The notes under the pieces are model-generated. The model saw nothing but the letters and a program-made list of their open reading frames with translations, was not told where the DNA came from and searched no databases. From assembly GCA_027493445.1 (NCBI GenBank), contig JAOSKU010000001.1:1389314-1453313 (forward strand): 64,000 bases of DNA, read 5' to 3'. The position numbers were made by a program, and so were the translations under genes. Positions 12,748 to 48,338 of the stretch are shown piece by piece. Position 1 is the stretch's first letter. Each line of letters begins with the position of its first letter. This DNA is from Thermoleophilia bacterium. Lineage in GTDB: Bacteria; Actinomycetota; Thermoleophilia; RBG-16-64-13.

Positions 12748-14038
12748 GGGCCTGTCACAAAATAACAGTAGCGAAACCGGCCCGACCGTGCTACGCTTCA
12801 CCGCATGGGTGGAGAGGCCGGCATCAAAGAACGATTCGAGCTTTTGGCCCCCTTCCTAGATGAGCGTAGCCGACGCCTGGTGGCCGCGGCGGAAGCGTTG
12901 GCCGCCGGCCGGGGCGGGAACACGCTCGTGGCCCGGGTGACGGGGGTTTCGCGGCGGGCGATCACGGCGGGATCTCGGGAGCTTGCCCATCCGGACCTCG
13001 CGCCGCGCGGGCGCATCCGGCGAGAGGGCGGCGGACGCAAGCGCACCGTGGACACGGATCCGACCCTTCGCGACGACCTGGAGCGCCTGGTGGAACCGGA
13101 GACCCGAGGCGATCCGGAGTCGCCCTTGCGCTGGACCTTAAAGAGCGTTCGCCGCCTGGCCGATGAGCTCACGCGGATGGGGCACCAGACGAGCCATCGC
13201 ATGGTCGCCGAACTGCTGCACGACATGGGCTATAGCCTCCAGGGGAACCGCAAGACCCGGGAAGGCTCGTCCCATCCCGATCGAGACGCTCAGTTTCGAC
13301 ACCTAAACGAGAAGGTCAAGGAGTACCAAGCCCGCAACGACCCGGTCATCTCCGTGGACACCAAGAAGAAGGAGCTGGTGGGCGACTTCAAGAACGGGGG
13401 CCGAGAACTGCGTCCGAAGGGGGATCCAGAAGCGGTGCGCGTGCATGATTTCATGGTCCCCGAGTTGGGAAAGGCGAACCCCTATGGGATCTACGATCTG
13501 GCGGGCAACCTGGGCTGGGTCAGCGTGGGCACCGACCACGATACCGCGGCTTTCGCCGTGCAGAGCATTAGCCGCTGGTGGCACTCGATGGGTAAAGAGA
13601 GGTACCCCGACGCCCACCGACTCCTCATCACCGCCGACTGCGGGGGAAGCAACGGCTACCGTCTCCGGCTGTGGAAGGTCGAACTGCAGAAGTTGGCCAA
13701 CGAGACGGGGCTCACGATCGGGGTCTCTCACCTTCCCCCGGGCACCAGCAAGTGGAACCGGATCGAGCACCGCCTGTTTTCGTTCATCACCCAGAACTGG
13801 CGGGGCAAACCTCTGATCAGTCACGAAGTCATCGTCAACCTGATCGCGGCCACCGTGACCCGCTCCGGACTGCGGGTGCGCTGTGAACTCGACCAAAACA
13901 CCTACGAGAAGGGCATCAAGGTGCCCGACGAGGAACTGGCCGCCGTGAATCTCAAGCGGGATGCCTTCCACGGGGAGTGGAACTACGCCATCGCCCCATC
14001 CGAGCCACCCATTGGATCATTTATTTCATGACGGGCCC
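12748..14038 (+). mobile_element. ISAzo13-family insertion sequence
   Basis: Imperfect TIRs gggcctgtcacaaaataa / rc gggcccgtcatgaaataa; TTA duplicated at 12745-12747 and 14039-14041. Confidence 0.9.
12805..14031 (+). CDS. ISAzo13-family transposase (intact ORF)
   Basis: ISVDTKKKEL, LLITADCGGSN, HLPPGTSKWNRIEHRLFS motifs. Confidence 0.92.
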   Translation: MGGEAGIKERFELLAPFLDERSRRLVAAAEALAAGRGGNTLVARVTGVSRRAITAGSRELAHPDLAPRGRIRREGGGRKRTVDTDPTLRDDLERLVEPETRGDPESPLRWTLKSVRRLADELTRMGHQTSHRMVAELLHDMGYSLQGNRKTREGSSHPDRDAQFRHLNEKVKEYQARNDPVISVDTKKKELVGDFKNGGRELRPKGDPEAVRVHDFMVPELGKANPYGIYDLAGNLGWVSVGTDHDTAAFAVQSISRWWHSMGKERYPDAHRLLITADCGGSNGYRLRLWKVELQKLANETGLTIGVSHLPPGTSKWNRIEHRLFSFITQNWRGKPLISHEVIVNLIAATVTRSGLRVRCELDQNTYEKGIKVPDEELAAVNLKRDAFHGEWNYAIAPSEPPIGSFIS

Positions 14039-14735
14039 TTAGGTAGAATTCGATGGGTTCACCGTCCACGATCACCCTCGTCACCCGGGCCGGGGTTGCG
14101 GCCTTCTCTCGGAGTCGCGGTAGTCGCGCGGGTGGGGCGTCTCCGCCTCCTCCACCACGGCGACCTCGACCTTGAGCCCGACCCCTTCCAAGGTCTTAAT
14201 CACGGCATCGAAGATCCGCAGGGCGCGATCGACCGACCCCGAGGACACCCGGATATCAAGGCAGGCCTTACGGGCAAGCAAAAGAAGACCGCCGCTCGGA
14301 TGCGCCTTGGCGAGATACCGGGAGGCGAGCACGACAAGCTTATGGGGGTTCTCGAGGGATGCCGGGACGACTATGGGTTCGCTGGTCTCGAGGGGGGCCG
14401 CTTGGCCCGCTTCCTCGGCCCATTCAGGAGGAGTTGGTGGTGGTGGCATACGGTGGACGAGAGCTTGCTGGGGTTGCCCGGGCTTGAGCGGGGGTAACGG
14501 CGGCTTTGCCTCTGCTCTTCCCGCCCGCAGCCTCGCCCAATACCCGCGACCCGGCAGGGGCACGCCCATGCGCCGGCAGGTCTTCCCAAGAGCAACGTCT
14601 GACACGCCATAGCGCTTGGCCACCACCTGGATGGGCTCAGCCCACACCTCCTCGTAGAGGAGGTTGCGGTCGTAGATCTGGCGCTCCTCTGCCATGATTG
14701 TCCCAGTATAGGCCCGGATCGTGGAGGGTCGGCAC

Positions 14736-15515
14736 ATGCAAAGCTACGCGATCGAGGTCGCTCACAAATACGGCATGCGGGAGAAGGTCTCACCCGGAGA
14801 GCCGCTCATTCAGGTGCAGGTGCTCGAGAAGGCCGGCAAGCGTGGTCAGGTGAAGGTCCGGCGTCTCTCCGAACCCAACGCCGGCTTGGAGGATTGGGTG
14901 AAGACCCGGCAGCTCATCGTGCCTTGGGCAGAGCGCCAGGCATTCCTCAAGGACGAGGAGCGAGAGGGGAAGTTTGACGAGGCCCGCCCGAAGCCAAACC
15001 AGGCTCTTTCTGGCGCAATCGAGACGGTCATGTACGCAACCGGATACGATGACGCAGGCGCCGACGACGACGGGACCGTCCACATGGACGCGGCCGAGCT
15101 ACGGGAGATCGCCCGTCTGTCCGGCCTTCCTCAGAAGCTCGAAGACCTCCATCCCCTGGCGTACGTCGATCGCCACGGGGACCTGCACCTGCCCCTCGAG
15201 GTCGCCGAGCAGCTGGCCCATGCCTACGCGAGCGCTGAGTCAGAGTCCGTTCTCATGTACATCGAGGACCAGGAGAAGGAGTACAAGTACCGCGGCAATG
15301 AGCCGGGCGAGCGATTCTGGCATGATGAGCTGCGGAGGCGCATGCCGGGCTTTGCATTGGCGCGCTACTGGGCCGGGCATGAAGAGGAGATCGCGTACCT
15401 GCGAGCGGAGATTGAGCGGCTGCGCGGCCTGGTCGTCAGCGCTGCCGATACGCTCTCGAGCAAAGGGCTCTGGGCTGAAGCCGGGCACATCCGGCTGGCT
15501 CTTCAAGGGCGATAG
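14736..15515 (+). CDS. Hypothetical protein
   Basis: 259-aa ORF with GGAG RBS; no family recognised. Confidence 0.6.
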   Translation: MQSYAIEVAHKYGMREKVSPGEPLIQVQVLEKAGKRGQVKVRRLSEPNAGLEDWVKTRQLIVPWAERQAFLKDEEREGKFDEARPKPNQALSGAIETVMYATGYDDAGADDDGTVHMDAAELREIARLSGLPQKLEDLHPLAYVDRHGDLHLPLEVAEQLAHAYASAESESVLMYIEDQEKEYKYRGNEPGERFWHDELRRRMPGFALARYWAGHEEEIAYLRAEIERLRGLVVSAADTLSSKGLWAEAGHIRLALQGR

Positions 15516-15643
15516 GGGTACACATTCCTGGGCCCCGACCATGGCCTCTCCCCCATGTCCCGCAGCAGCGCACAAGGACCGATCACCTGCGCAGCCTGCT
15601 CCGTTTATGGGTCGCGATATCGGCCAATACTGCATCCTTGGAT

Positions 15644-15671
15644 ATTGACACTATGAACGGATGGTGCTTCG
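15644..15671 (+). repeat. Site S2: putative Tyr-recombinase site
   Basis: ATTGACACTAT gaacgg ATGGTGCTTCG; shares GGATATTGACACTAT with S1; 52 bp past the stop at 15724. Confidence 0.72.
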
Positions 15672-15723
15672 GGCACCTACCCTGCAGCGGCACAAACACC
15701 CGGCACTCGCCACTCGGCCGCCG

Positions 15724-18250
15724 CTACGTCGCGCTCGGCTCCTCTGGACGCACGCCGAGGATCCAGCCCTCTACCCGCACGACGGCCTCCTGGTCTTCTC
15801 CGGGGAGCGCCGAGAGGTCGAACAGGCTCGCAAGCTGACCCTCATCATCAAGCCGAGCGAAGTGCTCGGCCAAGGCCCGGACCTGGCCGGCGTCCTTGAC
15901 CTCTGCAAAGGGCGAGGGCGGTATGAATGAGGGATAGATCTCCGCATGGACGATGAGCGGACCGCGGGGGGCGGAGAGGTCCTCCCCAGCGATGGCGGTC
16001 TCAAAGGGCCAGACACGCGAGAGGGGACCAAGGACCGCATCGTCGCGAAGCGCGAGCAGGCGAGGGATGCCAAGCAGGGCCTGGCTGCCCACCGAGCCCG
16101 CGCCGTAGAGCTGCCAGGGAGACTTGGGGCCCACCACCTGGCCATCGCAGAGGCGGTACTCGGGGATCCCTCCGGGCCAGGGGCGCGGCTTGGTTCTCTT
16201 AACAGGCTGCTGAAAAAGTCCCCCGCCTAGCCCTCCGATTGCCTCAACTTCCTATCTTTTTGCGCCCCTTTTTGGTAGTGTTTACCCTGCAAACTGGCAT
16301 AAAGCGAGGGGGTTGGGATGCGGGGAGAAGAGGCAAGGCAGCCGTCGTTTGTATTCTTGGGTCCCTTGGAGGAGCGCATCCCCAAAGATCACCCCTTGCG
16401 GGCCATCCGCAAGATGACCGATAAGGCGCTTTGCGGTCTCTCCCCCCTCTTTGACAAGATCTACTGTGAAGCCGGCCGCCCCTCCATCCCGCCCGAGTAC
16501 CTTCTGCGAGCCCTGCTTATTCAGGTGCTCTACGCCATCCCTTCGGAGCGCAAGCTCTGCGAACACCTCGAGTATCACCTGCTCTTTCGCTGGTTTGTGG
16601 GCCTCGATCTAAACGAGCCCGTCTGGCATCCCACCACCTTCACCCAAAACCGGGAGCGCCTGCTTGAGGGCGAGGTGGCCGAGGCCTTCTTCCTGGAGGT
16701 GAGGAAGCAGGCCCAGGCGGGGAAACTCCTTTCCCGGGAGCACTTCAGCCTGGACGGCACCTTGGTGGAAGCGGCGGCCTCCCTCAAGAGCTTCCGGCCC
16801 AAACAGGAATTGGCCGAGGGCCAGGAGGGCGGCCGGGGGCCAGGCAAAGATGACCCGGGTGCGGGGAGGACCCGAGCCCCGCCGAGCCAGTCTCGGAAAG
16901 CGCAGGCCGCGACCGCAACCCGAGTGTGGATTTCCACGGCGAGCGGCGCCGGAATGACACCCACGCTTCCACCACCGATCCGGAAGCTCTTCTTGCCAAA
17001 CACTCTCCCGGAGAAGCGGCCCGGCTCGCTTATGCCGGCCATCTCCTCACCGAGAACCGCCACGGTCTCATCGTCCAGGCCGATCTCTCCCGGGCCACCG
17101 GTACCGCCGAGCGGGAGATGGGTCTTGAGCTGGTGAAGGAGGAGCGCAAAAAGACCAAGGGCCGGTTCACTGTCGCAGCCGACAAGAACTACGACACCAA
17201 GGACTTCGTGGGCGAACTACGGACTAACGTTGTTACCCCGCATGTGGCTCGCAAAGAGAAGTACTCGGCCATCGATGGCCGCACGACACGGTGGGAGGGA
17301 TACGCCCTCAGCCAGAAGAAGCGCAAGCTGGTGGAGGAGGCCTTCGGCTGGATGAAGACAGTCGGACTGCTTCACAAGCTCCGGCACCGCGGGCGGGCCA
17401 AGGCCCGATGGATCTTCCAGTTCACGGCCGCCGCCTACAACCTGGTGAGAATGAGATCGCTGCTTCCGGAGTGCATCGCCAGATAGGGAAAAAGGGGCGG
17501 GGAATCGGCCTCTCCAGGGGGCATAATCCCGGTCTTCGCCCGGGCAATCCGAGAACCGACCGTTCGTGGGTCAAGCAGCCGAGCAACGGAGCACATCGGA
17601 GGGGCTCCAACCGGGGTATTTCAGCGGCCTGTTAAGGGAGGCACCCGCCTTGCTCTGGGGGCAGCCCCAGAAAGGAGCCGGTCCCCCGGTGAGGGCGCCG
17701 TTGAGCTCGGCGGCCACCTCGAAGCGGTTGTTCTTGTTGTCGGGGTGGTCCTCGACCAGGCCCGCGACTTCCTCCCAAAGAACGCGCCAGGGACGGTCGG
17801 CCGCCACTCCCAGGCGCTCGGCCGTACCCCGGGGAAGCCGTAGGGGAAATCAAAGCCCACCAGCACGCGCTGGCCTTGGGAGAGAAGACGGGTCAGGGAG
17901 GCCCGAACCTCGTGCAGACCTTGTTCCCGGGTGGGCGGGTTCTCTAGCAGCACCCGGCCGGACTCAGGCTCATGCAGGCACCACCAGACACTGTCTTTTC
18001 CCGTCTTGGGCCGACTGTTGGCACTCCAGTCCACCATCAGGTAGGCGTCGAACAGGGTGAGGGCGTCAGGTCTTCTGTGGGGAAGACCGCCGGCGGTCTG
18101 GCGCACGAGGTAGTCACGCAGGATGGTTTTTCGCCCCGCTCTGGCGAACCTCACCGTGACGACGTCGCCCCGCACCTCCTCGACCAGGCCCTGGCCGAAG
18201 ACCTCATGGGAGACCTCATCCCTCGGGCTGATGGGGGTCTCGCCGCTCAC
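15724..18250 (-). pseudogene. PcrA-type Tudor-like domain fused to a DUF429-like predicted nuclease; split by IS5
   Basis: N-terminus VSHEVFGQGLVEEVRGDVVTVRF; FDAYLMVDWSA, VGFDFPYG, PFWGCP, GSVGSQALLGIP, HAEIYPS motifs. Removing the IS rejoins GASLKRTKPRP. Confidence 0.65.
16203..17631 (+). mobile_element. IS5-family insertion sequence; transposase 16318-17486 with one frameshift
   Basis: TIRs CAGGCTGCTGAAAAA / rc CAGGCCGCTGAAATA; TTAA duplicated at 16199-16202 and 17632-17635; GRPSIPPE, HFSLDGTL, ADKNYD motifs. Confidence 0.9.
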
Positions 18251-18520
18251 CTACATGCGGTGGTCTCGTGGTCGCTGCGCCGATGGCGCCCCTTGCTGGT
18301 TCATGAACCTACCCTAGCAGACGGAGGCAACGAGAGGGAAAGGGGTCTGAACTCAAGGGGAGAAAAGGTCGGCTCTGGCTCGGCCGGCATCGTTGGCCGC
18401 CATACGCGTAGGATGCCCGAGGGTGATGGCCCCGCCAACCGGCAAGACCGCGGAGCAGCAATGGCCGATCAAGCGCCCGGCCCCGTAACCACGGGAGACC
18501 CCGCCGCTTCACTCTTGGGA

Positions 18521-18548
18521 ATTGACACTAACTGTTGATGGTGTTCTG
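18521..18548 (+). repeat. Site S3: putative Tyr-recombinase site
   Basis: ATTGACACTAA ctgttg ATGGTGTTCTG; 85 bp past the stop at 18634. Confidence 0.72.
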
Positions 18549-22015: not shown

Positions 22016-22043
22016 AGAGATACTACCGCAGAAGGGTGCTCTC
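22016..22043 (+). repeat. Site S4: putative Tyr-recombinase site (degenerate)
   Basis: AGAGATACTAC cgcaga AGGGTGCTCTC; 28 bp past the hsdR stop, at an apparent GC step. Confidence 0.55.
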
Positions 22044-22071
22044 ACAGCCCGCTGCACCGGGCTCGTCCCAC

Positions 22072-25218
<3,147 letters not shown>

Positions 25219-25308
25219 CGTCAAGAAGTCACGTCCTGGTCCTGCCTCGGACACGCGTATAGTATTGCACGCCGCTCTCACGATCGAGCTCGACGAGTGC
25301 CTTGGCCA

Positions 25309-28294
<2,986 letters not shown>

Positions 28295-28400
28295 CGTACA
28301 TCGTCAGCCGGACGGCCGAAACCTGAAACCAGCGAACGCGCGGGAACGGAAAGACGCGAGAAAACGTAGCCGGGGTGCCGGAGGCAGCTAGCCGCCCGAC

Positions 28401-28428
28401 CCCACCACTACCAGGTCATGGTGCTCTG
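28401..28428 (+). repeat. Site S5: putative Tyr-recombinase site
   Basis: CCCACCACTAC caggtc ATGGTGCTCTG; 21 bp past the stop at 28450. Confidence 0.62.
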
Positions 28429-28449: not shown

Positions 28450-29646
28450 TCAGAACGTCGGCACCTCCGGTTTCAGGCCCGCTACCCCGGCCAGGGCGAG
28501 AACCATCCGCCCGTAGAACCAGGAAAGCAACTGAAGATCCGCCATTTCCTGGGCCGTTGCTGGATTGTCCCTCTCGGCGGGAGTCGGAACCCAGTCAGGG
28601 TGCGCGGTCGAGTGACGAATTCGGCTGAAGCTCCGGAGAACGTCGTTCTTGACCGCCTTCCACGCTGAGCCCAGGTAGTGCTCTTGGAAGTCTTTCAGTC
28701 CCTTCTCCACTGTCCACGACTGGTTCGGCCTCGATAGCGGCTTCTCGTAGTAGCTCCGCAGTGCCGCCTCGAGCCACGTGCCCACCATCAGCTTCCGCCC
28801 GTACCAAGTGGGCTGCTGGTTGGCGGCCATCATGTGCTCAGACGCGCGCTCGATGATCCACTGCTCCTTCGACGGCTTGACCAGCCGTTGCACAAGCGCC
28901 CAGAACAGACCCGCGGGCACCGTCATATCCAACTCGGGGAACATACTGAGGAACGTGAGGACTACGGGGGTCGGTTTCTTGGCCACCTCGATGTAGGTGC
29001 ACCTCCCCCGCTCCACGCTCGACTCCATGAGCCATACCTCTTGACTGGCGAGCAGCGCGAGAGCCACTCGGATTGCCCGCGGTAGGCGTCGGGCATTCTC
29101 CTTTGTGAACCGGCCTCTATCCATAGTTGCGGTTACTTCTAGATATGGCTCTTCCTTGACGCGGCAGAGTAGGTTCACGAACCTGGTCTCGATCTGCAGC
29201 GCCCTCATAGAACCGGTCTTCTCCACCACTCGGTCCGCCACTGAGAAGCTGCCGGTCACCGCATGCGGCAACACTGGTGTCTTGACGAACTGGTACTGCC
29301 CACTCACAAGGTGTCGTGACAAGGCCCCCGGGTCCTTGATCCTCTCGATGAACAGCGCCCTGGGCGCTTCCACGGTAAGTCGCCCGTGCGCCTCGAGGTC
29401 GAACTGGTTTGCGAGCGGCACCGCCGGAATGAAAGCGCGACGACCATCCGTGAGCTCCAGTCGGAGCGAGGAGTACCTGTTCGCGGGTATCAAGCCATGA
29501 ACCATCTCGGAGAACAGCGGGGGTCTCTGAACGGACCGATCAACCAACAGGTCTACTTCCAGGCGCCCTGCTGCTTGCCAGCGCAAGACCCCCTCCCCCG
29601 CATCCAGGCGTCGCGATAACGGAAAGTACCGTCGTCGACGGTCCAT
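28450..29646 (-). CDS. Hypothetical protein with a C-terminal HEPN-like Rx4H motif (ApeA-like architecture)
   Basis: 398 aa; beta-rich N-terminus, helical C-terminus containing FSRIRHSTAHP. Confidence 0.5.
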   Translation of the reverse strand: MDRRRRYFPLSRRLDAGEGVLRWQAAGRLEVDLLVDRSVQRPPLFSEMVHGLIPANRYSSLRLELTDGRRAFIPAVPLANQFDLEAHGRLTVEAPRALFIERIKDPGALSRHLVSGQYQFVKTPVLPHAVTGSFSVADRVVEKTGSMRALQIETRFVNLLCRVKEEPYLEVTATMDRGRFTKENARRLPRAIRVALALLASQEVWLMESSVERGRCTYIEVAKKPTPVVLTFLSMFPELDMTVPAGLFWALVQRLVKPSKEQWIIERASEHMMAANQQPTWYGRKLMVGTWLEAALRSYYEKPLSRPNQSWTVEKGLKDFQEHYLGSAWKAVKNDVLRSFSRIRHSTAHPDWVPTPAERDNPATAQEMADLQLLSWFYGRMVLALAGVAGLKPEVPTF

Positions 29647-29766
29647 TCTTGGTTCTGGCGTATATCTCTCAACGCGCAGGCCTCCCCTTGGTCTCGTCAG
29701 CGCGGCCCGCTGAGCAGCAAATGGGACCCGCCGCGCTCGCGCGACCCCCGGTGCTCACGACTTGCT

Positions 29767-29798
29767 ATTGTCACCATGGGAGCGAACATGGTGACGAC
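29767..29798. promoter_or_regulatory. Site S0: dyad related to S1-S7 with a 10-bp spacer, upstream of the recombinase gene
   Basis: ATTGTCACCAT gggagcgaac ATGGTGACGAC; perfect 8-bp inverted repeat GTCACCAT/ATGGTGAC; left arm 9/11 identical to the S1/S2 left arm. Confidence 0.6.
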
Positions 29799-29821
29799 GA
29801 CTCTATCGCAAGGAGACCACC

Positions 29822-30757
29822 ATGCGCTCGACCGCTGTCAGCTACCCCATCGGATCGTTGGAAGGCTGGGAGCGTTCGCTCATGGCCTTCCTGGTCGAGA
29901 AGGAACGCCGCTCCGGTTCCCGGCGCACGGTGGAGAGCTACTCCCGCATGCTCCAGGACTTCTTCGGGCGGCTGGGCAAGGCTCCCGACAAAGTGACCGC
30001 CCAGGAGGTGTTCGTCTGGGCCCACGCCGTCGGTGTCTCCGGCAGGGACCCCTCCCCCATCACCATCGGCGCGCGCATGGCCTGCGTGTCGTCGTTCTTT
30101 CGTTTCCTTCAGCGCATGGATATCGTCGACAAGAACCCCTGCGATCGGCTGGAGCGACCCAAGACCTCGCCCTCTCCCCCGCGTGGGCTCACGGCCGACG
30201 ATGTACGTCGCTTACTGGCGGTCATCCCCGACACGCCGGTGGGTCTACGCAACCGCGCTCTGATACTCACGCTCGTACTCACGGGCCGTCGCAGGGCCGA
30301 GGTATTCCGCATGACCGCGGGCGACCTCTCCATCGAGAACGGCACCTGCTTCTACACCTACAGGGGCAAGGGGGCGAAGACGGGACGCCGCGAGCTGCCC
30401 CTACCTGCCGTCGACGCGCTCAGGGCCGCGCTGCGGGCCTTCGGGCGCGAACTGGAGGACATGTCCCCGGAGGAGTCCCTCTGGCCCTCAGGGGCGGGCA
30501 CCGGCCGTGGCCTCACCTCGGGCACCTTCTACGCCCAGCTTAGGCGCTACCTAAAGCAAGCCGGTCTGCCAGCGGCCGGGGTGCACATCCTGCGCCACAC
30601 GGCGGCCAAGCTCAGGCGGGATGTCGGCGAGTCCATCGAGGACGTGTCCCGCTTTCTGGATCACTCCTCGCTCGCGGTGACCACGACCTACCTCCGGCGG
30701 CTGGAAGGGCAGGAAGATCTGGGCTGGGGGCGGGTGGCGGAGGCTATCGGGCTGTGA
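29822..30757 (+). CDS. XerC/D-like tyrosine recombinase (intact, 311 aa)
   Basis: SAM-like N-domain (RRTVESYSRML); catalytic residues in TGRRRAE, GKG, HILRH, LDHSS..TTTY; AAGGAG RBS. Confidence 0.92.
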   Translation: MRSTAVSYPIGSLEGWERSLMAFLVEKERRSGSRRTVESYSRMLQDFFGRLGKAPDKVTAQEVFVWAHAVGVSGRDPSPITIGARMACVSSFFRFLQRMDIVDKNPCDRLERPKTSPSPPRGLTADDVRRLLAVIPDTPVGLRNRALILTLVLTGRRRAEVFRMTAGDLSIENGTCFYTYRGKGAKTGRRELPLPAVDALRAALRAFGRELEDMSPEESLWPSGAGTGRGLTSGTFYAQLRRYLKQAGLPAAGVHILRHTAAKLRRDVGESIEDVSRFLDHSSLAVTTTYLRRLEGQEDLGWGRVAEAIGL

Positions 30758-31585: not shown

Positions 31586-31613
31586 GTCAGCACCATTTGG
31601 TCATGGTCCTGTC
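31586..31613 (-). repeat. Site S6: putative Tyr-recombinase site, inverted relative to S1-S5
   Basis: rc GACAGGACCAT gaccaa ATGGTGCTGAC; 50 bp past the stop at 31664. Confidence 0.6.
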
Positions 31614-34417: not shown

Positions 34418-34445
34418 CTACGCACGATCGCCTCATAGTGGTTGG
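34418..34445 (-). repeat. Site S7: putative Tyr-recombinase site, inverted relative to S1-S5
   Basis: rc CCAACCACTAT gaggcg ATCGTGCGTAG; left arm nearly equals that of S5; 35 bp past the stop at 34481. Confidence 0.6.
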
Positions 34446-35973: not shown

Positions 35974-38900
35974 TTAGTGAGCAGCCTCCTTTGTCTCGGG
36001 TGGGTTAATCCAGGCGGCTGTCGGCAGCGCCGGTGGCGTGGGCGCCCCCCGGACGAATCGTTCCGGGTTGGCGGCGTAGGCCGAGTCGAGCACTCGCTGG
36101 CGCTCTTTGTGGATCATCTGCGCCTGGCCGTGGTGGACGGCGCTCGGAGTCATAAGCCCGATGCCGCCGTGGCGGTGAACGTGGTTGTACCAGAAGAAGA
36201 ACTCCCCCAGGAAGCTGCGGGCCTCTTCCAGCGAGAAGAAACGCTCCGGGAAATCCGGCCGGTATTTCAGCGTGCGAAACTGGGCCTCGGAGTAGGGGTT
36301 GTCCGTGGAGGTGTAGGGCCGGGAGTGGCTCTTTTGGATACCAAGATCAGCCAAGAGGAAGGCCACCGGCTTGGAGGTCATGGCCGCTCCTCGGTCGGCG
36401 TGCACGATGAGGGTGCCCGGCTCGATCTTCTGCTGGGCGGCCGCCTGGGTGATGAGGGCTTTGGCGATCTCGCCCGACTCCCGGTAGGTGACGCACCAGC
36501 CCACGCAGTAGCGGCTAAAGACGTCCAAAAGGACGTAGAGGTAGTAGTAGGTCCAGGTGGCCGGGCCCTTGAGCTTGGTGTAGGGTCGGACCGAGGCGCG
36601 GTGCCGAGGTTTCCCCGCGGTCCGTCTCCTCGGCCCGCCCTCCGAACCGGACATGCACGTCTCCACGCATCCGGCTCTCCACGAGTTCATGCCGTGCTCA
36701 CCCACGGTGTCTGGATGCAGGCGCCCCGGTAGCGGTAGCGCTCAATGGCTACCTTGTTGGGACGAAACATCTTGACGGCGCCGTCGCGTATCTGCCAGTT
36801 GGGCAAGTAGCGGCGGCTGAGAGTGCCCCAGTTCAGCCCGTGATGCCGCTTGCGCAACCAGGTAACCACCCGCCACCACGCAAAGTGGTCCAGGTAGCTG
36901 AAAGTGCGCGAGCTGACCCCGTGGCGGAAGTAGGTGCACCAGCCCCGCAGCACTGGGTTTAAGTAGCGCAGCAGGGCGGCGAGCGTTCGATGCTTCTTGC
37001 GACGAGTGAGCGAGCGCACCTTCGCCATCACCGAGGCGAGCGCCTTCTTGGATGGGTAGGTGTAGACGGCCCGCTTACCGGCCCAACCGCGCTTTCGGCG
37101 CCGCTGAATGCGGTAACCCAGGAAGTCAAACCCCTCGTCGATATGGCAGACCCTCGTCTTCTCGGCCGACAGGCGCAGGCCCACGGGCGCGAGCAGCGCG
37201 CTGACCTCGTCCCGGAGCGCTTCTGCATCACCGCGTGAGCCTCCGACCATGAACACAAAATCGTCCACATAGCGGACGAGGCGGCAGGCCGGGACCCCTT
37301 GGCGGCGCCGCTTGGCCCGGGTCCAGTACGGGCCGAGGGCTTCCCACTTGCGCGTGAAGTGCTCGTCCAGTACGGACAGGGCAATGTTCGCCAGCAAGGG
37401 CGAGAGGATCTGACCTTGAGGAGTGCCGGTGATCGTGTCCCGACTCACGCCATCCTCAGAGAGGATGCCAGCGGCCAGGAAGGCTTTCACCAACGCCAGC
37501 ACGCGCTTGTCCTTGACGCGTACCCGCACGCGGTCCATGAGACCTCGGTGCGAGATTTCGTCAAAGCAGTCCGCAATATCTGCCTCGAACACCCACTCGT
37601 AATTACGGGTGGGGGACCCGAGGTAGTGTATCTCGGCGATGGCATCCTGAGCCCGGCGCTTGGGGCGGAAGCCGTAGGAGCACGGCTTAAAGTCCGCCTC
37701 GAAGATGGGCTCGAGCACCAGCTTCAACACCGCTTGCACAGCCCGATCGCTAGCGGTCGCGATCCCCAGACGCCGGACCTTGCCGTTCGCCTTGGGGATG
37801 AGCTTCTCGCGTACCCGATCCGGGGTAAACCGGCGAGCCTTGAGACAAGCTCTAAGCTCGGCGAGGAACCCCGCGCTGTCGGTGATGGATCGCGGTGCGA
37901 TACCGTCCACGCCTGCGGAGCGTGCGCCCCGGTTGCTCCTCACCCTGGCCCAGGCCACCACCAGAAAGGCCGGGTCATAGACCAGGTTGTAGAGGTCATC
38001 GAACCGGCGGCCCGCATCGGCGACCGCCCTTCGGTGCAGCTTCGTCTGCATGGCGAGTACCCGTTGCTCGGCCTCCACGAGGCTGGGCCACGGTGCGCCC
38101 GTGTTCACCGGCGACCTTCCCGCTTCGCATTGATGCTGCGAACCCGCTGGACCCCTTCGCCATGTACCGGGCTTTCCCCGGCTCGGACTACTACGGGTCC
38201 TCCGTCCCGAGCCGCTGGCGTCCGCCGGCGACGAGCATTCCCGCCGACCAGCCTAGGGCTGGCCGATGAGGGGACCATCGGCCCGGTTCCCACGTTCACC
38301 TTGTGATCGTTCGTCGGGTTAGGTGCCCAACTATGCCCCTGCGGCTTCGCCACACCTACGCCGCAGACCTTCGGTGTGGCCTCCTGGCCGGCGACATAAA
38401 CCGACCAGAGGAGTTCCCCGCGCCTCGTGCGGGTGCGCGCCGCGACCCAGCCCATATCCGCCAGATTGGAGCTGGTGGTTCTCTCTTGAGGAGCGTTCTG
38501 ACGCTGGTTTCTCACGTACACCTTCCCGTCTTGCTTGCCGGACCCAGACCGTCTGGCAGTACCGACCCGTCCCGTCGTTGTCGGGGCTGCTTGCCGCTCT
38601 TACCGGCGTCCCCCGGTTCGAGCTGCCCCCAGCTTCACCGGTCCGCTGCGACGAACCGGCGGCGGTGTCCTTTCATCACCGCACGATCGCATGGCGCCTC
38701 GTGGCGCTCCGTATCCCAACTCCACACCCGGTTGGGCTCTTCGGCCAGTAGCTCGGGCTTGTGGTAGGCGGGATGGGTACGCTGGTTGCGCCGTTCCCTC
38801 AGCTCGCCCCGGGCGGCCAAGAGGCGGTACATGGTGCGCTCCGAGCAGAGGTAGCGGCCCTCGTCGAGAAGCGTGGCGAAGACCGCAGCCGGGGACGCAT

Positions 38901-39111
38901 CGCAGAAACGCTCACTGTGAAGACAGTCAAGGACGGCCGCCCGCTCGCCGGGAGAAAGGGCCCGGGCTGCGGTGGGCCGGGACGCCGGAGGCTTCTCCTG
39001 GGGTGGCCGCCGGCGGCGGTAGAGGGTGGCCGGGGCCACGCCGAGGGCCCGGCAGGCCGGGCGCGTGCCCACGATGAGGCTGAGCTCTTCGGTTGTCTTT
39101 TCCAACATCAT
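35974..39111 (-). CDS. IS3-family transposase OrfB (DDE), interrupted by the intron
   Basis: PNRVWSWD | TKLKG..LDVFSRYCVGW, HADRG, DNPYSEAQF; in frame after removing 36580-38709. Confidence 0.85.
36580..36677 (-). ncRNA. Group II intron domains V-VI
   Basis: DV GAGCCGGAUGCGUGGAGACGUGCAUGUCCGGUUC (AGC triad), followed by DVI ending CCGACCCUAC. Confidence 0.92.
36687..38108 (-). CDS. ltrA: Group II intron reverse transcriptase/maturase without endonuclease domain
   Basis: GVDG, IPKANGKVRRLGI, SYGFRP, GTPQGQILSPLLAN, RYVDD, GFDFLG, LNPVLRGWCTYF; 473 aa. Confidence 0.93.
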   Translation of the reverse strand: MNTGAPWPSLVEAEQRVLAMQTKLHRRAVADAGRRFDDLYNLVYDPAFLVVAWARVRSNRGARSAGVDGIAPRSITDSAGFLAELRACLKARRFTPDRVREKLIPKANGKVRRLGIATASDRAVQAVLKLVLEPIFEADFKPCSYGFRPKRRAQDAIAEIHYLGSPTRNYEWVFEADIADCFDEISHRGLMDRVRVRVKDKRVLALVKAFLAAGILSEDGVSRDTITGTPQGQILSPLLANIALSVLDEHFTRKWEALGPYWTRAKRRRQGVPACRLVRYVDDFVFMVGGSRGDAEALRDEVSALLAPVGLRLSAEKTRVCHIDEGFDFLGYRIQRRRKRGWAGKRAVYTYPSKKALASVMAKVRSLTRRKKHRTLAALLRYLNPVLRGWCTYFRHGVSSRTFSYLDHFAWWRVVTWLRKRHHGLNWGTLSRRYLPNWQIRDGAVKMFRPNKVAIERYRYRGACIQTPWVSTA

Positions 39112-39605
39112 TCGTTGCTCTTGTCGGGCTCCGCGCCCCTGGGCCCCAAGAGTTCGCCCAAAAGCGCAGATACGTTTCCCTGGACTTCGATCACCCGGCG
39201 GGCCTTCTCAAGCTCGGCCTCGGTGCGCACCAGGCGCCGGCGCAGCTCGACATTCTCCTTCTCCAAGGGATCCGCCGATTTGCGGCCTCGGGCCCGGGAA
39301 AGAGCCTCCAGGGCACCCTCCTCCCGTTGCCGGCGCCACTTGGTGAGGTGGGAGGAGTAGAGGCCCTCCCGGCGCAGAAGAGCGCCCACCTCACCTGGCT
39401 TGGTGGCGGCGCCGGCTTCCTCTAGGATGGCCAGCTTGTAGGCGGCGGAGAAGCGCCGCCTGTTTGCCCGCTCCACCAGCTCTGGGTCAGCCGTGACCAC
39501 GGGCATGCAGGGCTCGGCCTTCCCCACAGTGCCCTCGCCCACGCCTCCTGGCGCCTCACGGCCACCACCATTTCTCTCGAACAATGACATCTCGGATGCT
39601 CCCAT
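39108..39605 (-). CDS. IS3-family transposase OrfA
   Basis: RRRFSAAYKLAIL..LRREGLYSSHLTKWRRQ HTH plus coiled coil. Confidence 0.88.
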   Translation of the reverse strand: MGASEMSLFERNGGGREAPGGVGEGTVGKAEPCMPVVTADPELVERANRRRFSAAYKLAILEEAGAATKPGEVGALLRREGLYSSHLTKWRRQREEGALEALSRARGRKSADPLEKENVELRRRLVRTEAELEKARRVIEVQGNVSALLGELLGPRGAEPDKSNE

Positions 39606-40555: not shown

Positions 40556-41794
40556 TCACTGACCCTCGATCCTCTCCGCCCGCTCCCCGGAGAAGGCCTC
40601 CCATCTGGCCACCACTATGGAAGCGTAGTGTGCATCGAGCTCCGTGCCGTAGCAGACGCGGCCGGTGCGCTCGGCGGCGATCAAGGTAGAGCCTGAGCCG
40701 AGAAAGAGGTCCAAGACGATGTCCCCTCGCTTGGAGCTGTTCTCCAGCGCCCGCTCGATCAAGGCCAGGGGCTTCATGGTGGGGTGCGCTTCCGAGGCCG
40801 AGGGCCGGGGCACCTTCCAGACGTCGGCCTGATCGCGGTCGCCGCACCAGTAAGGCTTCGCCCCTTCGGGCCAGCCAAACCAGCAGGGCTCGTACGCTCT
40901 CTGGTAGGGTGCCCGACCCAGGACGAACTGTCCTTTGTCCCAGATCAGGTAGTCGCTCCAGTGGCCACCGGCATCCTCGAAGACCCGGGCGACGATCGGC
41001 AGCTCCTTGGAACTCATGAAGCAATAGATGGCCCCGTCAGTGAAAGCGATGATGTTGCCCACGAAGCCCCGCACGAACTCCTGCCATTCTTCGGGTGGCA
41101 AGTTGTCGTTCTCGAGGCGGCGCCGTCGCTGTCCGCGTTGCTGACCGCCATGGTCGCCCAGCGCCACGCCGTACGGCGGGTCAGTCACACAGACGGCCGC
41201 TTTCCGCCCGTCCATCAACCTGGTGACATCATCAGTCTTGGTTGCATCACCACACAGTAGGCGGTGGTCTCCGAGCGCCCAGAGCTCGCCCGACTTGACC
41301 CGGGGCTCGCGCCGGGCTTCCTCGAGGGCGGCCTCCAGGTCGAAGCTCTCCGGCCGGTCGCGCTTCTCCCGGACTTCCAGGGTCTTCAAGAGCCTCTTGA
41401 TCTCGTCGTCCTCAAACCCGGACAGGGTTAGGTCGAGGTCCGGGGTCTGCCCAAGATCGGAGAGCAGGCGGGCGAGCAGCTCCTCATCCCAGGATCCCGA
41501 GATCCGGTTCAGGGCTAGGTTGAGCAGCCGGGCCTTCTCCTCGGAGACGTCGAGGAGGATGACCGGTATCTTCTCGAGTCCCAGCTTCCGGGCGGCCAGG
41601 AGGCGTTGGTGGCCGCCAATGACGGTTCCGTCCTCTTGCCTTGCGATGATGGGGTCGACCAGACCGAACTCCTGGATGCTCCGGGTGAGGGACTCTAGCT
41701 CGGCGTCCGAGATGCGCCTTGGGTTGGCCGGGTCGGGACGAAGCTCAGAGATGGGCAGGGTCTGCATTTCGAGGACGGGGGCGGTCTTAGTCAT
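40556..41794 (-). CDS. ParB-like N-domain fused to N4/N6 DNA methyltransferase
   Basis: LRPDPANPRRI..IGGHQRL; VTDPPYG; HPTMKP; VLDLFLGSGSTL. Confidence 0.92.
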   Translation of the reverse strand: MTKTAPVLEMQTLPISELRPDPANPRRISDAELESLTRSIQEFGLVDPIIARQEDGTVIGGHQRLLAARKLGLEKIPVILLDVSEEKARLLNLALNRISGSWDEELLARLLSDLGQTPDLDLTLSGFEDDEIKRLLKTLEVREKRDRPESFDLEAALEEARREPRVKSGELWALGDHRLLCGDATKTDDVTRLMDGRKAAVCVTDPPYGVALGDHGGQQRGQRRRRLENDNLPPEEWQEFVRGFVGNIIAFTDGAIYCFMSSKELPIVARVFEDAGGHWSDYLIWDKGQFVLGRAPYQRAYEPCWFGWPEGAKPYWCGDRDQADVWKVPRPSASEAHPTMKPLALIERALENSSKRGDIVLDLFLGSGSTLIAAERTGRVCYGTELDAHYASIVVARWEAFSGERAERIEGQ

Positions 41795-42773: not shown

Positions 42774-43166
42774 TCATGTCGCGCTCTCTCGGGAGAAGGA
42801 CCTGAAGAGGCTGAGGGCGTAGTCCTCCCGCTCCCGGATGACCCTCCCGAACTGCGCCTGGTCCCTATTCTTGTAGGCCTTTTGCAGCTCGCCTTCGAAC
42901 CGTCGCCACTCCTCGCTTTCGAGCGCACATCCCTTGGGCCAGGCTCGAGCAAGGTAGCGAGTGGAGGAGAGAAGAACTCCGTCAGCCTCCTCCTCCCAGC
43001 GTAGGAGGTCGAGAAGTTCCTGTCGGTGGGCACGAAGGGCGGCGATGAGTTCGGGGGTGAGATTCTCAGGCTCGACGAAGGAGGGTTGCACGTGTACACG
43101 CTCGCCTCTGCGGCTCAGATGCACGAAGCGCCGCCCGCATTCCTCAAGAAGCTCCTCCAAGCTCAT
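42774..43166 (-). CDS. Small hypothetical protein coupled to the primase-helicase
   Basis: LTPELIAALRAHRQELLDLL; ATGA overlap. Confidence 0.6.
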   Translation of the reverse strand: MSLEELLEECGRRFVHLSRRGERVHVQPSFVEPENLTPELIAALRAHRQELLDLLRWEEEADGVLLSSTRYLARAWPKGCALESEEWRRFEGELQKAYKNRDQAQFGRVIREREDYALSLFRSFSRESAT

Positions 43167-45181
43167 ATGAGGAGTCCTCCCTCGGGTTCAGGCCTTGGGG
43201 CTGAGGGGTCCCGTACATCGTCAGAATCGCCATACTTCTCCACCGGCACCGGGTGAAGATGTATGGGTGGTGGTGAGGATGTATGGGGGAGCGACCAGAA
43301 AGAGGTGGAGCCCTGGCCGAATCCGTCGCGCTTGGACTGAACGTTAAGGGCCTTCTTGGCTCGCTCCAGGGTCGTCTCGCTGACGCCGGCGCTCCTCGCG
43401 GCCTTATATATGTCTGTGGCCGGCAGCCGCCCGGCTGCCAGCATCTCCTCCAGGAAGTCTTTGGCTTCATCGAGTTGGGTTCGGCCCTTCTCGCCGCGCG
43501 GCCGGCGGACGAGTTGGTCTGCCGTGTAATCGCATCTGCCGTCCCACCTCACTCGGCAGACGCCGCCAGCGGTGGGCTCGAGATGAAAGGCCAGGCTATC
43601 CGGCGCGGGGCCCAAGTTGCTCTTGGTGGAGGCGAGCACCCGAACCTCATCATCGTCCGGGTGCTTTCCCACGAGGAGGGCCGAACGGGCCGCCCCCACG
43701 ATGCCGATGCTCCCCCCGCCTCGGTAAAGGGCGGGCCCATCCTCGGCCTTGTTTAGGTGTCTGACCACCAGGGTGCTGGCCCCGGTCTCCTCGGCCATCC
43801 CCGACAGACGGAATAGCGCGCGGCGAACGTCCTGATCTCGGTATGAGTTCACCTTCCCGGCGAGATAAGCCATAAGGGGATCCACGACAACGAGACAAGC
43901 GTCAACTTGAACGATGGCCTGGGTCAGGAAGGGAAGGTCGTCCGGAAGCAGTGGTGGATGCTCCGCCTCCCCATTCGAATCGGGACAGGCGGCCAGCAAG
44001 AGGATGCGGGTGAGGTCCGCGCCAGCCGCGATGAGCCGAGGGACGATGGTATCGGCAAGACCATCTTCGGCGGAGAGGATGACGACCCCAGACGGCTCCC
44101 CGCCACTGGTGCCGTCGGGCATAACGTCTCCACGGCTCAGCCGGGCGGCGATGTCGAGGCAGGCCGTGCTCTTGCCGAGGCCGGGGTCGCCATCGAGCAC
44201 CACAAGCTTGCCCTGAGGTATACGGCCGGGCCAGAGCCAGCGTACAACCTCGGGCCTGATCTGAGAGGCGAGGATGCCCAGCGGCCGCGGCGGAGTTGCT
44301 GCGGGCGGCTGCCCCTTCCCCGAGGTCATGAGGCGCTCCAGCTCCTCGCGAGTGCCCCCCGCCGCGGCCCAATCACTGATGTCACCCTTCTCGGCGAGGT
44401 CGGGTAACTCGAGAACCGAAACCCTCGTGCCGAATTCGGTCAGGGCGGCGGCGACGGCACGAGCGTGCTCGCGACCCGCCTGGTCATTGTCCGGGAGGAT
44501 GATGACCTCCGCTCCTCGAAGCGCCTTGGAGTACTCGTCGCGCCACTTGCCGGCGCCCATGGGGTTGCACGTGGCAACCAATCCCCACCTCTCCAGGGTG
44601 TGGACGTCTTTCTCCCCCTCGACGATGAAGATTGGGTGGCCTTCGCGCACGGCTTGGAGCACTCTCGGTAGTCGGTAGAGAACGAGCGGAGCGGTGGGGA
44701 ACCATCTGACCCGGGCCCCAGGCCTTGAGGGTTCCGGCAGGAAGTCATCTTCCTTGGCTTTCGACTTCGACCGGCGCCAGTCACCGTCTGCACCCTGTTC
44801 GTACCACGCACCCCTGAGCCCCCAGACCCAACTGCCTAAGCCGTCCGGCCGCCGCTGAGGGAACTGCTTCGACGGCAGGCGAAGCACCTGAAAGAGCGGG
44901 TGGCCGTCCGCGGCCGCGTATTCGTAGACATCCTGGGGCCCTGTCCTGTCCCCGCGCAGCGGCTCCAGCTTCAACTCCCCGGCTGTCACCCCTAGTGCCC
45001 GGGTGATATCGGAAAAGGAGCAGCCCGCGTGGCAGTTGAGAAGCACCTGTCCTCGGTCACCGATCCCGACGCTGAGAGAGGCATGGGTGTCCTCATGGGC
45101 CGGGCAACTGGCCGACCAGCCATCCCCGCATTCCCTCACCTGCTTGAGCCGACCCAGGATCAGTTTCGCCGGCTCGTTCAT
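43163..45181 (-). CDS. Primase-helicase fusion (Zn-binding, TOPRIM, AAA_25/RepA-type helicase)
   Basis: CPAHED..CHAGC; VEGEKD..LPDND..G; GDPGLGKS; LVVVDP; VRHLNK..GGGSIG. Confidence 0.88.
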   Translation of the reverse strand: MNEPAKLILGRLKQVRECGDGWSASCPAHEDTHASLSVGIGDRGQVLLNCHAGCSFSDITRALGVTAGELKLEPLRGDRTGPQDVYEYAAADGHPLFQVLRLPSKQFPQRRPDGLGSWVWGLRGAWYEQGADGDWRRSKSKAKEDDFLPEPSRPGARVRWFPTAPLVLYRLPRVLQAVREGHPIFIVEGEKDVHTLERWGLVATCNPMGAGKWRDEYSKALRGAEVIILPDNDQAGREHARAVAAALTEFGTRVSVLELPDLAEKGDISDWAAAGGTREELERLMTSGKGQPPAATPPRPLGILASQIRPEVVRWLWPGRIPQGKLVVLDGDPGLGKSTACLDIAARLSRGDVMPDGTSGGEPSGVVILSAEDGLADTIVPRLIAAGADLTRILLLAACPDSNGEAEHPPLLPDDLPFLTQAIVQVDACLVVVDPLMAYLAGKVNSYRDQDVRRALFRLSGMAEETGASTLVVRHLNKAEDGPALYRGGGSIGIVGAARSALLVGKHPDDDEVRVLASTKSNLGPAPDSLAFHLEPTAGGVCRVRWDGRCDYTADQLVRRPRGEKGRTQLDEAKDFLEEMLAAGRLPATDIYKAARSAGVSETTLERAKKALNVQSKRDGFGQGSTSFWSLPHTSSPPPIHLHPVPVEKYGDSDDVRDPSAPRPEPEGGLLI

Positions 45182-45450
45182 GACCGCGGTAGTGAAGAGA
45201 CTGGGGAATCGACGACGAGATCCACTCTTGTGAGATTCAGCAAGGGGACGAGCGGGATGAGGAGGCGCCGCCCAAGCCGGCAAACCTGTATTTCCTGCTG
45301 GGCGATGGCCTGGCGCACGCTGCCGCGGCTGACGCCAAGGAGGCGTGCCGCCTCGTGGTCGGTTAGCATTAGGCGCCCCTCGTCGCGAATGATGTGGACC
45401 AGCCAGGGGGGAAGGACATCGGGGACGACAGCTGCGTGGGTAAGCTCGAT
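45178..45450 (-). CDS. Excisionase/AlpA-like HTH protein (start uncertain)
   Basis: LMLTDHEAARLLGVSRGSVRQAI..RLGRRLLIP. Confidence 0.7.
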   Translation of the reverse strand: MELTHAAVVPDVLPPWLVHIIRDEGRLMLTDHEAARLLGVSRGSVRQAIAQQEIQVCRLGRRLLIPLVPLLNLTRVDLVVDSPVSSLPRS

Positions 45451-46739: not shown

Positions 46740-48054
46740 ATGAGGGGCCATGTGCGCAGGCGGGGTACCTGGGAGTACATCCTCGAGCTGGGCGATCGAC
46801 CGACACAGCGCTGCACCGGCTGCAACCACAGGCATTGGGTGGATCGAACCCGTCTGAAGTCCTGCGTCAAATGCGGCGGTCCGCTGGTCGACCGCGTCGA
46901 GCGGAGACAGCAGGTGAAGACGGGCTTCAAGACCAAGAAGGATGCAGAGGCCGCCCTCAATGACGCTCTGAGCTCCCTCGGCCAGGGAACCTACGTCGCG
47001 CCCGCCAAGCTGACGGTGGAGGAGTTCCTGCGGGACGAGTGGCTACCCGCCGTCAAGAGCAGCATCCGGGAGAGCACCTACCTCAGCTACAAGGGTCACG
47101 TGGAGGGCCACATCATCCCGCTGCTCGGACCGGAGCGCCTGCAGCGGCTATCAGGCTCCATGATCAACGCCTTCTACGCCACTCTCCTCAGCGAACCCGA
47201 GCCCGAAGAACCGAAGGACAAGGTCGCAAAGACACGAACGGACACGCGCACGAAGACCCCAAAGAAGAAGCCAACGACCGAAACTCGCAAGAAGAAGCTC
47301 AGCCCCACCACCGTCCGCCACGTCCATGGGACCCTGCACAAGGCGCTCAAGGACGCGGTCCGCTGGGACAGGCTGCCCCGCAATCCCATCGAGGCGGCCA
47401 ACCCTCCCAAGAGAATGAGCGCCGGGAGCGCGGAGATGCAGGTGTGGACCTCGGCCGAGCTTAAGACGTTCCTCTCCGGGGGTGCGGTCGTCTCGGCTCT
47501 ACCCACTCTGGCTCCTCCTCGCCTCCACCGGCATGCGCCGAGGGGAGGTCGTGGGGCTACGCTGGAAGGACGTGGATCTCAAGGCGGGGAGACTGTCGGT
47601 ACGCCAAACCCTCGTTTGCGTCGGCTACGAGGTCCAGGTATCCGAACCCAAGACCCGTAAGGGGAGGCGCTCGGTGGCCCTGGACCCGGTCACCGTAGCC
47701 ACTCTCAAGCGCTGGCGCAAGGAGCAATCTGCGGAGAGGCTCGCCTGGGGACCGGCCTGGAATAACACCGGGTATGTCTTCACTCGGGAGGATGGACACC
47801 CCCACCACCCCGACAGGATCAGCAAGCTCTTCGAGGACGCCGTGGCGGATTCTGGCCTTCCCCGGATCCGCCTGCACGACATGAGGCATACCCATGCCAC
47901 CTTGGCCTTGGCCGCGGGCATCCACCCAAAGGTGGTGAGCGAGCGCCTGGGTCACGCCAACGTGAGCATCACCTTGGACACGTACTCCCACGCCATCCCC
48001 GCTATGGCAGAGGAAGCGGCCACCAAGATCGCCGCCTTGGTGCATCCGGAGTAG
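46740..48054 (+). CDS. int: Island tyrosine integrase; one frameshift near 47480
   Basis: MRGHVRRRG arm-binding start with a CxxC insertion; TGMRRGE; IRLHDMRHTHAT; LGHANVSITLDTYSH. Confidence 0.92.
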
Positions 48055-48335: not shown

Positions 48336-48338
48336 CTA

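Follow-up and report, generated by a model that had tools for sequence, protein, structure and literature searches.

The 64,000-nucleotide stretch analysed here (the window) covers positions 1,389,314 to 1,453,313 of contig JAOSKU010000001.1 from a Thermoleophilia bacterium, and is high-GC DNA from a bioreactor metagenome. At 29822-30757 on the plus strand it carries rec, a gene for a 311 aa Xer-like tyrosine recombinase, which is preceded by an inverted repeat, S0, and shares the window with seven further dyad sites, S1-S7. The rec reading frame is open throughout its 311 aa and matches Pfam Phage_integrase (E = 1.8e-18), and the R, K, HxxR, H and Y residues of the full catalytic set all align to XerD 1A0P (in RRRAE, GKGAK, HILRH, DHSSL and TTYL), in agreement with its first-pass annotation as an uninterrupted recombinase with full catalytic residues. 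Left of rec, and all on the minus strand, are a 398-aa gene, the hsdM, hsdS and hsdR genes of a Type I restriction-modification system, and a gene coding for a STAND-type ATPase-PRTase fusion.

S0 is composed of ATTGTCACCAT (29767-29777), the spacer gggagcgaac (29778-29787) and ATGGTGACGAC (29788-29798), in which GTCACCAT (29770-29777, plus strand) and ATGGTGAC form a perfect 8 bp dyad, with a mismatch at the ninth pair. The dyad stops 23 bp short of the rec ATG at 29822, a GGAG is present at 29812-29815, and the left arm is identical at 9 of 11 positions to ATTGACACTAT of S1 and S2 (11191 and 15644); sequence, position and likeness are all as first described, and the letters of S0 are identical in four independent short-read contig sets. 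The exact dyad with a spacer of 4-16 bp occurs once in the window and in none of 100 shuffles, but by our own arithmetic about a dozen 8 bp dyads of any sequence with such spacers are expected per 64 kb, so that the palindrome alone is unremarkable. The S0 11-mer is not significantly enriched in the window when up to two mismatches are allowed (13 matches, 6.8 expected). It is the match of both arms to S-type arms (8.9 bits for the left and 8.4 bits for the right) that goes beyond chance, rather than the palindrome itself; the probability of an arm as good as the left one within 15 positions is about 0.006. A third arm-like 8-mer, ACCACCAT (29816-29823, plus strand; 9.7 bits), overlaps the rec start codon and is an inverted repeat of the CATGGTG in the right half of S0.

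The S sites have an 8-6-8 form, rACACyAT-N6-ATnGTGCT, 22 bp in length with a 6 bp spacer, and all seven in the window are intergenic; the core CACCAT-N6-ATGGTG with at most two mismatches is found seven times, against 1.8 in shuffles. S1 (11194), S2 (15647) and S3 (18524), which together span 11194-18545 on the plus strand, have the extended left part GGAwATTGACACTAw in common. S4 (GATACTAC-cgcaga-AGGGTGCT; 22019-22040, plus strand) is just past the hsdR stop codon, and S5 (ACCACTAC-caggtc-ATGGTGCT; 28404-28425, plus strand), the nearest full S site to rec in the divergent direction, is 24 bp past the stop codon of the 398-aa gene. S3, S4 and S5 each directly follow the stop codon of a minus-strand gene or operon, and the Type I operon is bounded by S4 and S5. 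Downstream of rec are the nearly symmetric S6 (AGCACCAT-ttggtc-ATGGTCCT; 31589-31610) and S7 (ACCACTAT-gaggcg-ATCGTGCG; 34421-34442, minus strand), which is at the border of the cargo and the island backbone. The GTTRRRY core is not present in the S sites. S0 departs from this form, with its arms spaced by 10 bp rather than around a 6-8 bp centre, a centre-to-centre arm distance of 18 bp (14 bp in every S site), and a left arm that scores -23.6 bits when placed in the 6 bp spacer frame. A 10 bp spacer is unsuited to canonical strand exchange by tyrosine recombinases, and the earlier suggestion that the S0 spacer is ill-suited to this reaction agrees with that established knowledge; the spacing would rule out S0 as a canonical core site.

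To place S0 in an evolutionary context we compared rec homologue loci (13 from metagenome-assembled genomes, 79 from metagenomes and one more), in which rec identity is 58-86% and of which several often come from one genome. The genes neighbouring rec are not conserved among these loci, and DNA homology between the window and the other loci extends only from about 29760-29780 to the rec stop codon; across the family it begins at about -55 to -85 (or -160) and ends 0 to 15 nt past the stop codon. In an ungapped alignment of 56 non-redundant upstream regions, anchored on the right half of S0, AACATGGTG is almost invariant (1.4-2.0 bits per position) and the GAG(C/G)G preceding it is well kept, such that the conserved right half reads GAG(C/G)GAAC-ATGGTG(T/A)C. 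In the window this corresponds to the block GAGCGAAC-ATGGTGAC (29780-29795, plus strand), consisting of the second half of the dyad spacer and the right arm, and no other non-coding element upstream of the homologues is strongly conserved in the alignment. A -35-like hexamer, TTG(A/C)(C/T)T, precedes AACATGGTG at a fixed distance of 17 nt, with 1.4-1.5 bits at TTG, and the 17 nt between them vary in sequence (0.2-0.7 bit) but not in length; the window hexamer is TTGCTA (29762-29767, plus strand), and in the homologues the hexamer is TTGCTT or TTGACT, its distance to the block unchanged. The distance from block to ATG varies among homologues.

The left half of S0 behaves differently. Positions corresponding to the left arm carry 0.2-0.4 bit, an arm equal in quality to that of the window is present in just two of the 56 homologues, and the left arm is not found in the closest homologue that could be retrieved (L096, 86% identity); the subfamily nearest to the window has CAC-type motifs at 8 nt (L047) and 5 nt (L041), not at 10. 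Conservation of the dyad upstream of homologues had been set beforehand as the test of its function, and it was found for the right half alone. The palindrome is real but, judging from these alignments, lineage-specific, with the left arm as the lineage-specific addition; the 10 bp palindrome is therefore not a conserved functional unit, as had been proposed, and the homologues appear to retain one arm over the recombinase promoter rather than a conserved autoregulatory dyad. As an S arm the right arm scores 8.4 bits in the window and a median of 9.7 bits in the homologues.

A clearer view of where variable DNA joins rec comes from comparing loci with one another. L017 and L005 are 90% identical from rec outward and diverge inside an S site: they agree across its right arm and all of the rec side, have a single base change in its spacer, and show no relation in its left arm or farther out. 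Homology between loci is thus seen to break inside S sites, and in these alignments the S sites are the junctions. The five contigs of a distant rec subfamily, about 92% identical, carry a full S site at -86, and their homology starts no more than 2 nt from it; the right arm of this site overlaps the -35 ([variable arm]|GAGGCC|ATCGTGTT-GACTTC), and the block of this subfamily is degenerate, whereas nine TTGCTT-class loci have a junction site at -156 to -198 of the form [variable arm]|GCA(C/A)AC|ATnGCGAT and still retain an S0-type block. The -86 and roughly -160 sites are, by this sequence pattern, the likely counterparts of attI, with a constant rec-side half and an outer arm that follows the flank. 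Because the nine loci with a junction near -160 keep the block, it must be conserved for something besides a junction role. The first-pass annotation had offered S0 as a primary entry site and the adjacent gene as the newest cassette. The relatives, however, have their junctions at full S sites elsewhere, and the S5 spacer (CAGGTC) differs from that of S0 (GCGAAC), so that a simple exchange between S0 and an S site does not account for the insertion of the neighbouring gene. S0 is probably not a cassette entry site, and the cassette junction of the window probably lies to the left of about 29760. A conserved CAGCAGAGCTGGTCAAAGGTGG also occurs in L007, L025, L028, L033, L062, L086 and others, some 60-85 nt ahead of the -35 in the stretch that separates the -160 junction site from the rec promoter; it looks like a degenerate S-type site with the spacer CTGGTC.

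The S sites themselves are a property of the rec family. A matrix built from the seven window sites alone, run over the 565 kb of homologue loci, gives 23 sites that score 17 bits or more, every one of them upstream of rec; shuffles give none. A refined matrix, which was partly trained on matches from the same loci and is less independent than the seven-site matrix, gives 34 unique S sites upstream (264 kb) and two downstream (205 kb), with two in shuffles. The link between enzyme and motif that had been proposed from the dyad is borne out, and the association of the rec family with the S motif is strongly supported by this enrichment of sites in the homologue loci, not by the dyad. All 34 have the 6 bp spacer of S1-S7, and at the loci mapped each S site closely follows the 3' end of a gene or operon that is on the minus strand and diverges from rec. 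The integron-like layout envisaged earlier, with rec divergent from an array of cassettes that each end in a site, is seen at S3-S5 of the window and at 12 or more of the homologue loci. Where annotated, the cargo at S sites is mostly restriction or defence genes: Type III systems in L041 and L028, Eco57I-like Type IIG in L017, MmeI-like in L047, Mrr in L002, an LmuB-like ATPase in L001, HSDR_N-RAMA in L090, and the Type I system and PRTase-STAND fusion in the window. Some genes in the interval from rec to the S sites have no evident defence role, those for SLH, bPH and HATPase domain proteins among them, and several have no family match.

The spacers of these sites recur by position. CAGGTC is the spacer of the first detected S site upstream of rec in the window (S5), L002, L005, L041, L047, L065 and L078, with CAGGCC in its place in L001 and L091. 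A CGCAGA/CCCAGA class occupies the second site out in the window (S4), L017, L028 and L041, although in L028 it is the only site detected, and TTGGTC is found downstream of rec in the window (S6), L001, L002 and L030, with the one-letter variants TCGGTC in L027 and GTGGTC in L072. In the rec subfamily with a C-terminal extension (L001/L017, L002/L053, L027, L030, L072) the gene is followed by CACCGCCAT-TTGGTC-ATnGGACT, 35-59 nt past the rec match; this site is homologous to the S6 region of the window, where S6 is 832 nt past rec and a 205-aa membrane-protein-like open reading frame intervenes. One pair of spacer classes (CGCAGA/CCCAGA with CAGGTC/CAGGCC) flanks the Type I system in the window (22019-28425), an Eco57I-like enzyme in L017 (1620-4954) and a Type III system in L041 (761-6589), and the restriction systems between these classes look like one slot filled by exchange. 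In L040 and L061 the true S site that bounds the first cassette has for its spacer the GCGAAC of the S0 block, a sequence that also resembles the GCA(C/A)AC of the nine junction sites near -160.

A plausible scenario, to which we attach about even confidence, is that the right half of S0 is a promoter and leader element of rec which contains one recombinase-type arm and is probably regulatory. TTGCTA together with the right half (29780-29795), 17 nt before AACATG, would form a family-wide promoter and leader of the recombinase gene, to which the left arm was added in this lineage. A Rec monomer on the conserved arm would sit over the -10 and start region and could repress its own gene; in the distant subfamily the equivalent arm would be on the -35 instead. 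The right half is read as promoter and leader because TTG is at a fixed distance, because the nine loci with junctions near -160 keep the block, and because the S5 and S0 spacers differ. Variants of the block with T give TATGGT, fitting the actinobacterial -10 consensus TAnnnT. It would be more than a -10 element because nine of its bases are nearly invariant, because GCGAAC recurs in the S sites of L040 and L061, and because the layouts of the two subfamilies are complementary, the distant one having an S site on the -35 and a degenerate block, and the main family having the block and no site at the -35. Three further observations are reasons to see more than a -10 in the block: L052 has a full 6 bp-spaced S site, GTCACTAT-cgcaat-ATGGTCAT, at the position of S0, left-arm-like motifs are mildly enriched (9 of 56, 3.6 expected), and the L006 locus is a mosaic with its left junction exactly at the block, its left flank being 84% identical to L021 while its rec is closer to L007 (84% identity) than to L021 (74%).

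The leader component concerns pairing with the start codon. CATGGTG(TC) of the block is complementary to (GA)CACCATG at the rec start, and in transcripts that contain the block CAUGGUG would pair with CACCAUG and mask the start codon. Homologues with short leaders have predicted hairpins of down to -18 kcal/mol with z scores to -6.9, and of nine consensus pairs in the start-codon stem two have compensatory changes and several are G-U. Such masking would be akin to the fold-back inhibition of IS10, in which only read-through RNA folds. A leaderless start or an upstream open reading frame at ATGGTG was considered and rejected, as its frame relative to rec varies with the distance from block to ATG.

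Several observations weigh against this reading of the right half. A simple sigma-70 consensus scan calls no promoter on the plus strand here; the -35 is 19 nt from (C/T)ATGGT, and the hexamer at 17 nt (AACATG) is a poor -10; the nine nearly invariant bases exceed the needs of a -10; and the metatranscriptomes hold none of the sequence. The window hairpin is weak (a 7 bp stem, -9.6 kcal/mol, z = 0.06), it is absent from homologues with a GGACATG start context, and if the promoter geometry is right then the gene's own transcript would start after the block, leaving the hairpin in read-through RNA only. The full site in L052, the left-arm-like motifs and the L006 mosaic also count here. Other candidates did not fare well: a LexA (Cheo-type) box, GCGAAC-N4-TGTC, is weak, with the left half fitting, 2-3 of 5 positions in the right half and CAAC in many homologues; an ECF-type -35 (GGGAAC) is rejected for want of a CGTT or GTT at the right distance; and phase-variable shuffling of hsdS by rec is rejected as there are no long inverted repeats to a partial hsdS, and the homologues are unlinked to Type I systems.

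The same observations on L052, L006 and the left-arm-like motifs favour the alternative in which the block (GCGAAC and the arm ATGGTGAC) is the rec-linked half of an attI-like primary site at which cassettes join the rec module; such a site would pair a strong right arm and a fixed overlap with a left arm that is weak and can be exchanged. In its favour, the verified junction sites have just this constitution, a constant rec-proximal spacer and right arm with a flank-dependent left arm, as S0-type blocks do, and S sites with the block's own spacer bound the first cassettes of L040 and L061. We nonetheless consider it rather unlikely. The block is kept in the nine loci whose junction is near -160, the fixed-distance TTG to its left should not survive repeated insertions at that point, the window left arm fails at 6 bp spacing (-23.6 bits), and the differing spacers of S5 and S0 mean that a single reciprocal exchange did not produce both of the sites around the adjacent gene. 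The L006 mosaic is explicable by gene conversion between paralogues of one genome, and could have arisen so, L006 and L007 being paralogues in a single metagenome-assembled genome. Alternative joints at S sites are absent from the contigs of eight DNA runs, all colinear with the window, although contigs hide rare variants.

Removing any role for the recombinase leaves the conserved half as a plain rec core promoter, with -35 and -10, in which the likeness to an S arm is coincidental and the palindrome a product of chance. The conserved TTG, the spacer of constant length and variable letters, and the conserved downstream block all suit this, as does the pattern of conservation within the block, where the A, T and final T of [C/T]ATGGT are kept rather than the AT.GTGC of S arms; by our own estimate an ATnGTG match would occur by chance in a 60-nt promoter region in about 5-10% of cases. 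It is nevertheless unlikely, given that nine invariant bases and the GAG(C/G)G surpass what a -10 requires, that the GCGAAC/GCAAAC spacer recurs in true S sites, that a full S site overlies the -35 of the distant subfamily, that the left arm of the window is matched by chance within 15 positions with P of about 0.006, and that the consensus scan finds no canonical promoter. A working dimer operator in this genome, bound across the 8-10-8 palindrome by Rec or by another DNA-binding protein of the island, would account for the perfect 8 bp dyad with two S-type arms, its overlap with the conserved promoter block and the third arm at the start codon, but it is improbable: the arrangement is not conserved, the nearest relatives have their CAC-type motifs at 8 and 5 nt, and the arms are 18 bp apart from centre to centre where every S site has 14 bp. 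Among these explanations we favour the promoter and leader element with one recombinase-type arm, and the S0 palindrome is not to be treated as an entry site or as a conserved operator.

The rec gene belongs to a large family, with more than 3326 homologues and several copies per genome, and a paralogue in the same 4.6-Mb contig (P0004) is 85% identical. Short-read contigs break inside rec at 29966/30001 in three of four runs (X1, X3 and X5; X6 is without a contig there), which is consistent with repeated copies; this genome and its community carry rec more than once. In a search of a plasmid collection the sole relative is 37% identical. The best NCBIfam models are Xer-type (about 96-99 bits), all far below their own cut-offs. 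No S-like site is detectable at the rec 3' end, sought as the end of a rec-only mobile unit, and synonymous-site conservation there is ordinary. A conserved partner gene beside rec is rejected, the first divergent genes of 29 loci being mutually unrelated. Among 39 rec homologues the share of the modal codon is 0.74-0.84 in codons 1-45 (29822-29956) and about 0.5-0.7 over most of the gene, a hint of additional constraint on the 5' part of the coding sequence. In L025 (7995-11088), L028 (5040-9218) and L067 (5078-7907) the rec match is spread over 2.8-4.2 kb, and this suggests that these genes are interrupted by insertions of 2-3 kb.

The first divergent gene (28450-29646, minus strand) encodes 398 aa as assembled, with an RHSTAH near the C-terminus, and has no match in Pfam, NCBIfam or PADLOC; its earlier description as HEPN-like had the RxxxxH motif as its sole basis and is not upheld. 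A sigma-70-like promoter match, TTGAGA-16-AAGAAT (29645-29672, minus strand), reads into it (one found, 0.0 expected), and is a consensus match only. Short-read contigs have an extra C after 29588 and after 31928 (four of four runs), and after 31798 (three of four, X6 being without coverage), and the first of these leaves the N-terminus of the 398-aa gene mis-assembled in the window. The window assembly has homopolymer deletions, and window reading frames that appear interrupted, that of the island integrase included, may be assembly artefacts.

The surrounding 39.9-kb island is bounded by a 49-nt perfect direct repeat of the 3' end of a tRNA-Met gene (8479-8527 and 48337-48385; tRNA at 48339-48415), and a second repeat of 64 nt, 80% identical, adjoins it (8600-8663 and 48206-48269). 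The island backbone includes the N-terminal part of an integrase (46740-47660), a Toprim/AAA_25 primase-helicase (43163-45283) and a ParB-methylase fusion (40556-41794). S1-S3 share 37 nt of extended similarity and the intervals between them now contain insertion sequence transposase genes, ISAzo13-family DDE between S1 and S2 (12805-14031) and DUF772 (IS5-like) between S2 and S3 (16318-17136). A group II intron reverse transcriptase/maturase gene (36687-38108) is present between parts of an IS3-family transposase (35974-36705 and 38635-39605).

The system of recombinase, S sites, spacer classes and defence cassettes that surrounds S0 is the more important result, and appears undescribed, a literature search having found no description of it. 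With enrichment on the divergent side alone, breaks inside sites and recurring spacers, the integron-like idea, at first a pattern seen in a single window, becomes a system open to testing. Tentatively, and as one possibility, rec and the S sites may constitute a previously undescribed class of cassette system, present in Actinomycetota/Thermoleophilia and some Chloroflexota, that combines an integron-like layout with a dedicated Xer-like enzyme and 8-6-8 sites, and in which defence operons would be exchanged slot by slot through heterospecific spacers rather than excised; an S arm in the rec promoter (at the -10 here, at the -35 in the sister clade) would tie enzyme production to site occupancy, with S0 as the regulatory or platform end. 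If so, it would be a second, independent way to build defence-gene cassette arrays in high-GC Gram-positive lineages, in which integrons are not known to occur, and a possible source of recombinases with naturally heterospecific sites. The rec family is apparently unstudied in the literature searched, its members adjoin restriction-modification and defence arrays, and if the conserved half of S0 binds the recombinase it would provide an experimental entry into a family of more than 3000 homologues.

As in integrons, the recombinase gene is divergent from a cassette array, a recombination site is at the 3' end of each cassette's gene or genes, the cargo is variable (mostly defence where annotated here), the half of the rec-proximal junction site that faces the recombinase is the conserved one, and a probably regulatory element is positioned over the recombinase promoter, this being a LexA box in integrons. 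It differs in that rec is Xer-like and not IntI, with the integron integrase model TIGR02249 scoring 39.5 bits (cut-off 265) over residues 30-199 only; in that the S sites are 22 bp double-strand-type 8-6-8 dyads, whereas attC sites are folded, 55-140 bp in length and have GTTRRRY; in its recurrent position-specific spacer classes and cassettes of up to whole 6-kb operons; and in its Actinomycetota/Thermoleophilia hosts. Xer/dif and the pdif modules of Acinetobacter plasmids similarly have short dyads with a 6 bp centre that flank accessory modules, and an enzyme of the Xer branch, but pdif relies on host XerC and XerD and on 11-6-11 sites in alternating orientation, unlike the dedicated single rec found here in several copies per genome beside the array, with S arms that are alike and sites that are one-directional; the inner arms of dif are ATAA/TTAT, and those of S sites CAyTAT/ATnGTG. 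IS10 and IS50 fold-back inhibition provides a parallel in which an inverted repeat puts the start codon in a stem with its 5' strand at or before the gene's own transcription start, such that only read-through is silenced, although for rec, a tyrosine recombinase and not a DDE transposase, this mechanism is suggested by sequence and modest covariation. Recombinase-mediated cassette exchange with heterospecific lox or FRT sites, a laboratory method, offers a likeness for the cargo slot: neighbouring sites have different spacers (CGCAGA and CAGGTC), and one class pair encloses restriction systems that differ by genome (Type I in the window, Type IIG in L017, Type III in L041), in what would be a natural system of exchange.

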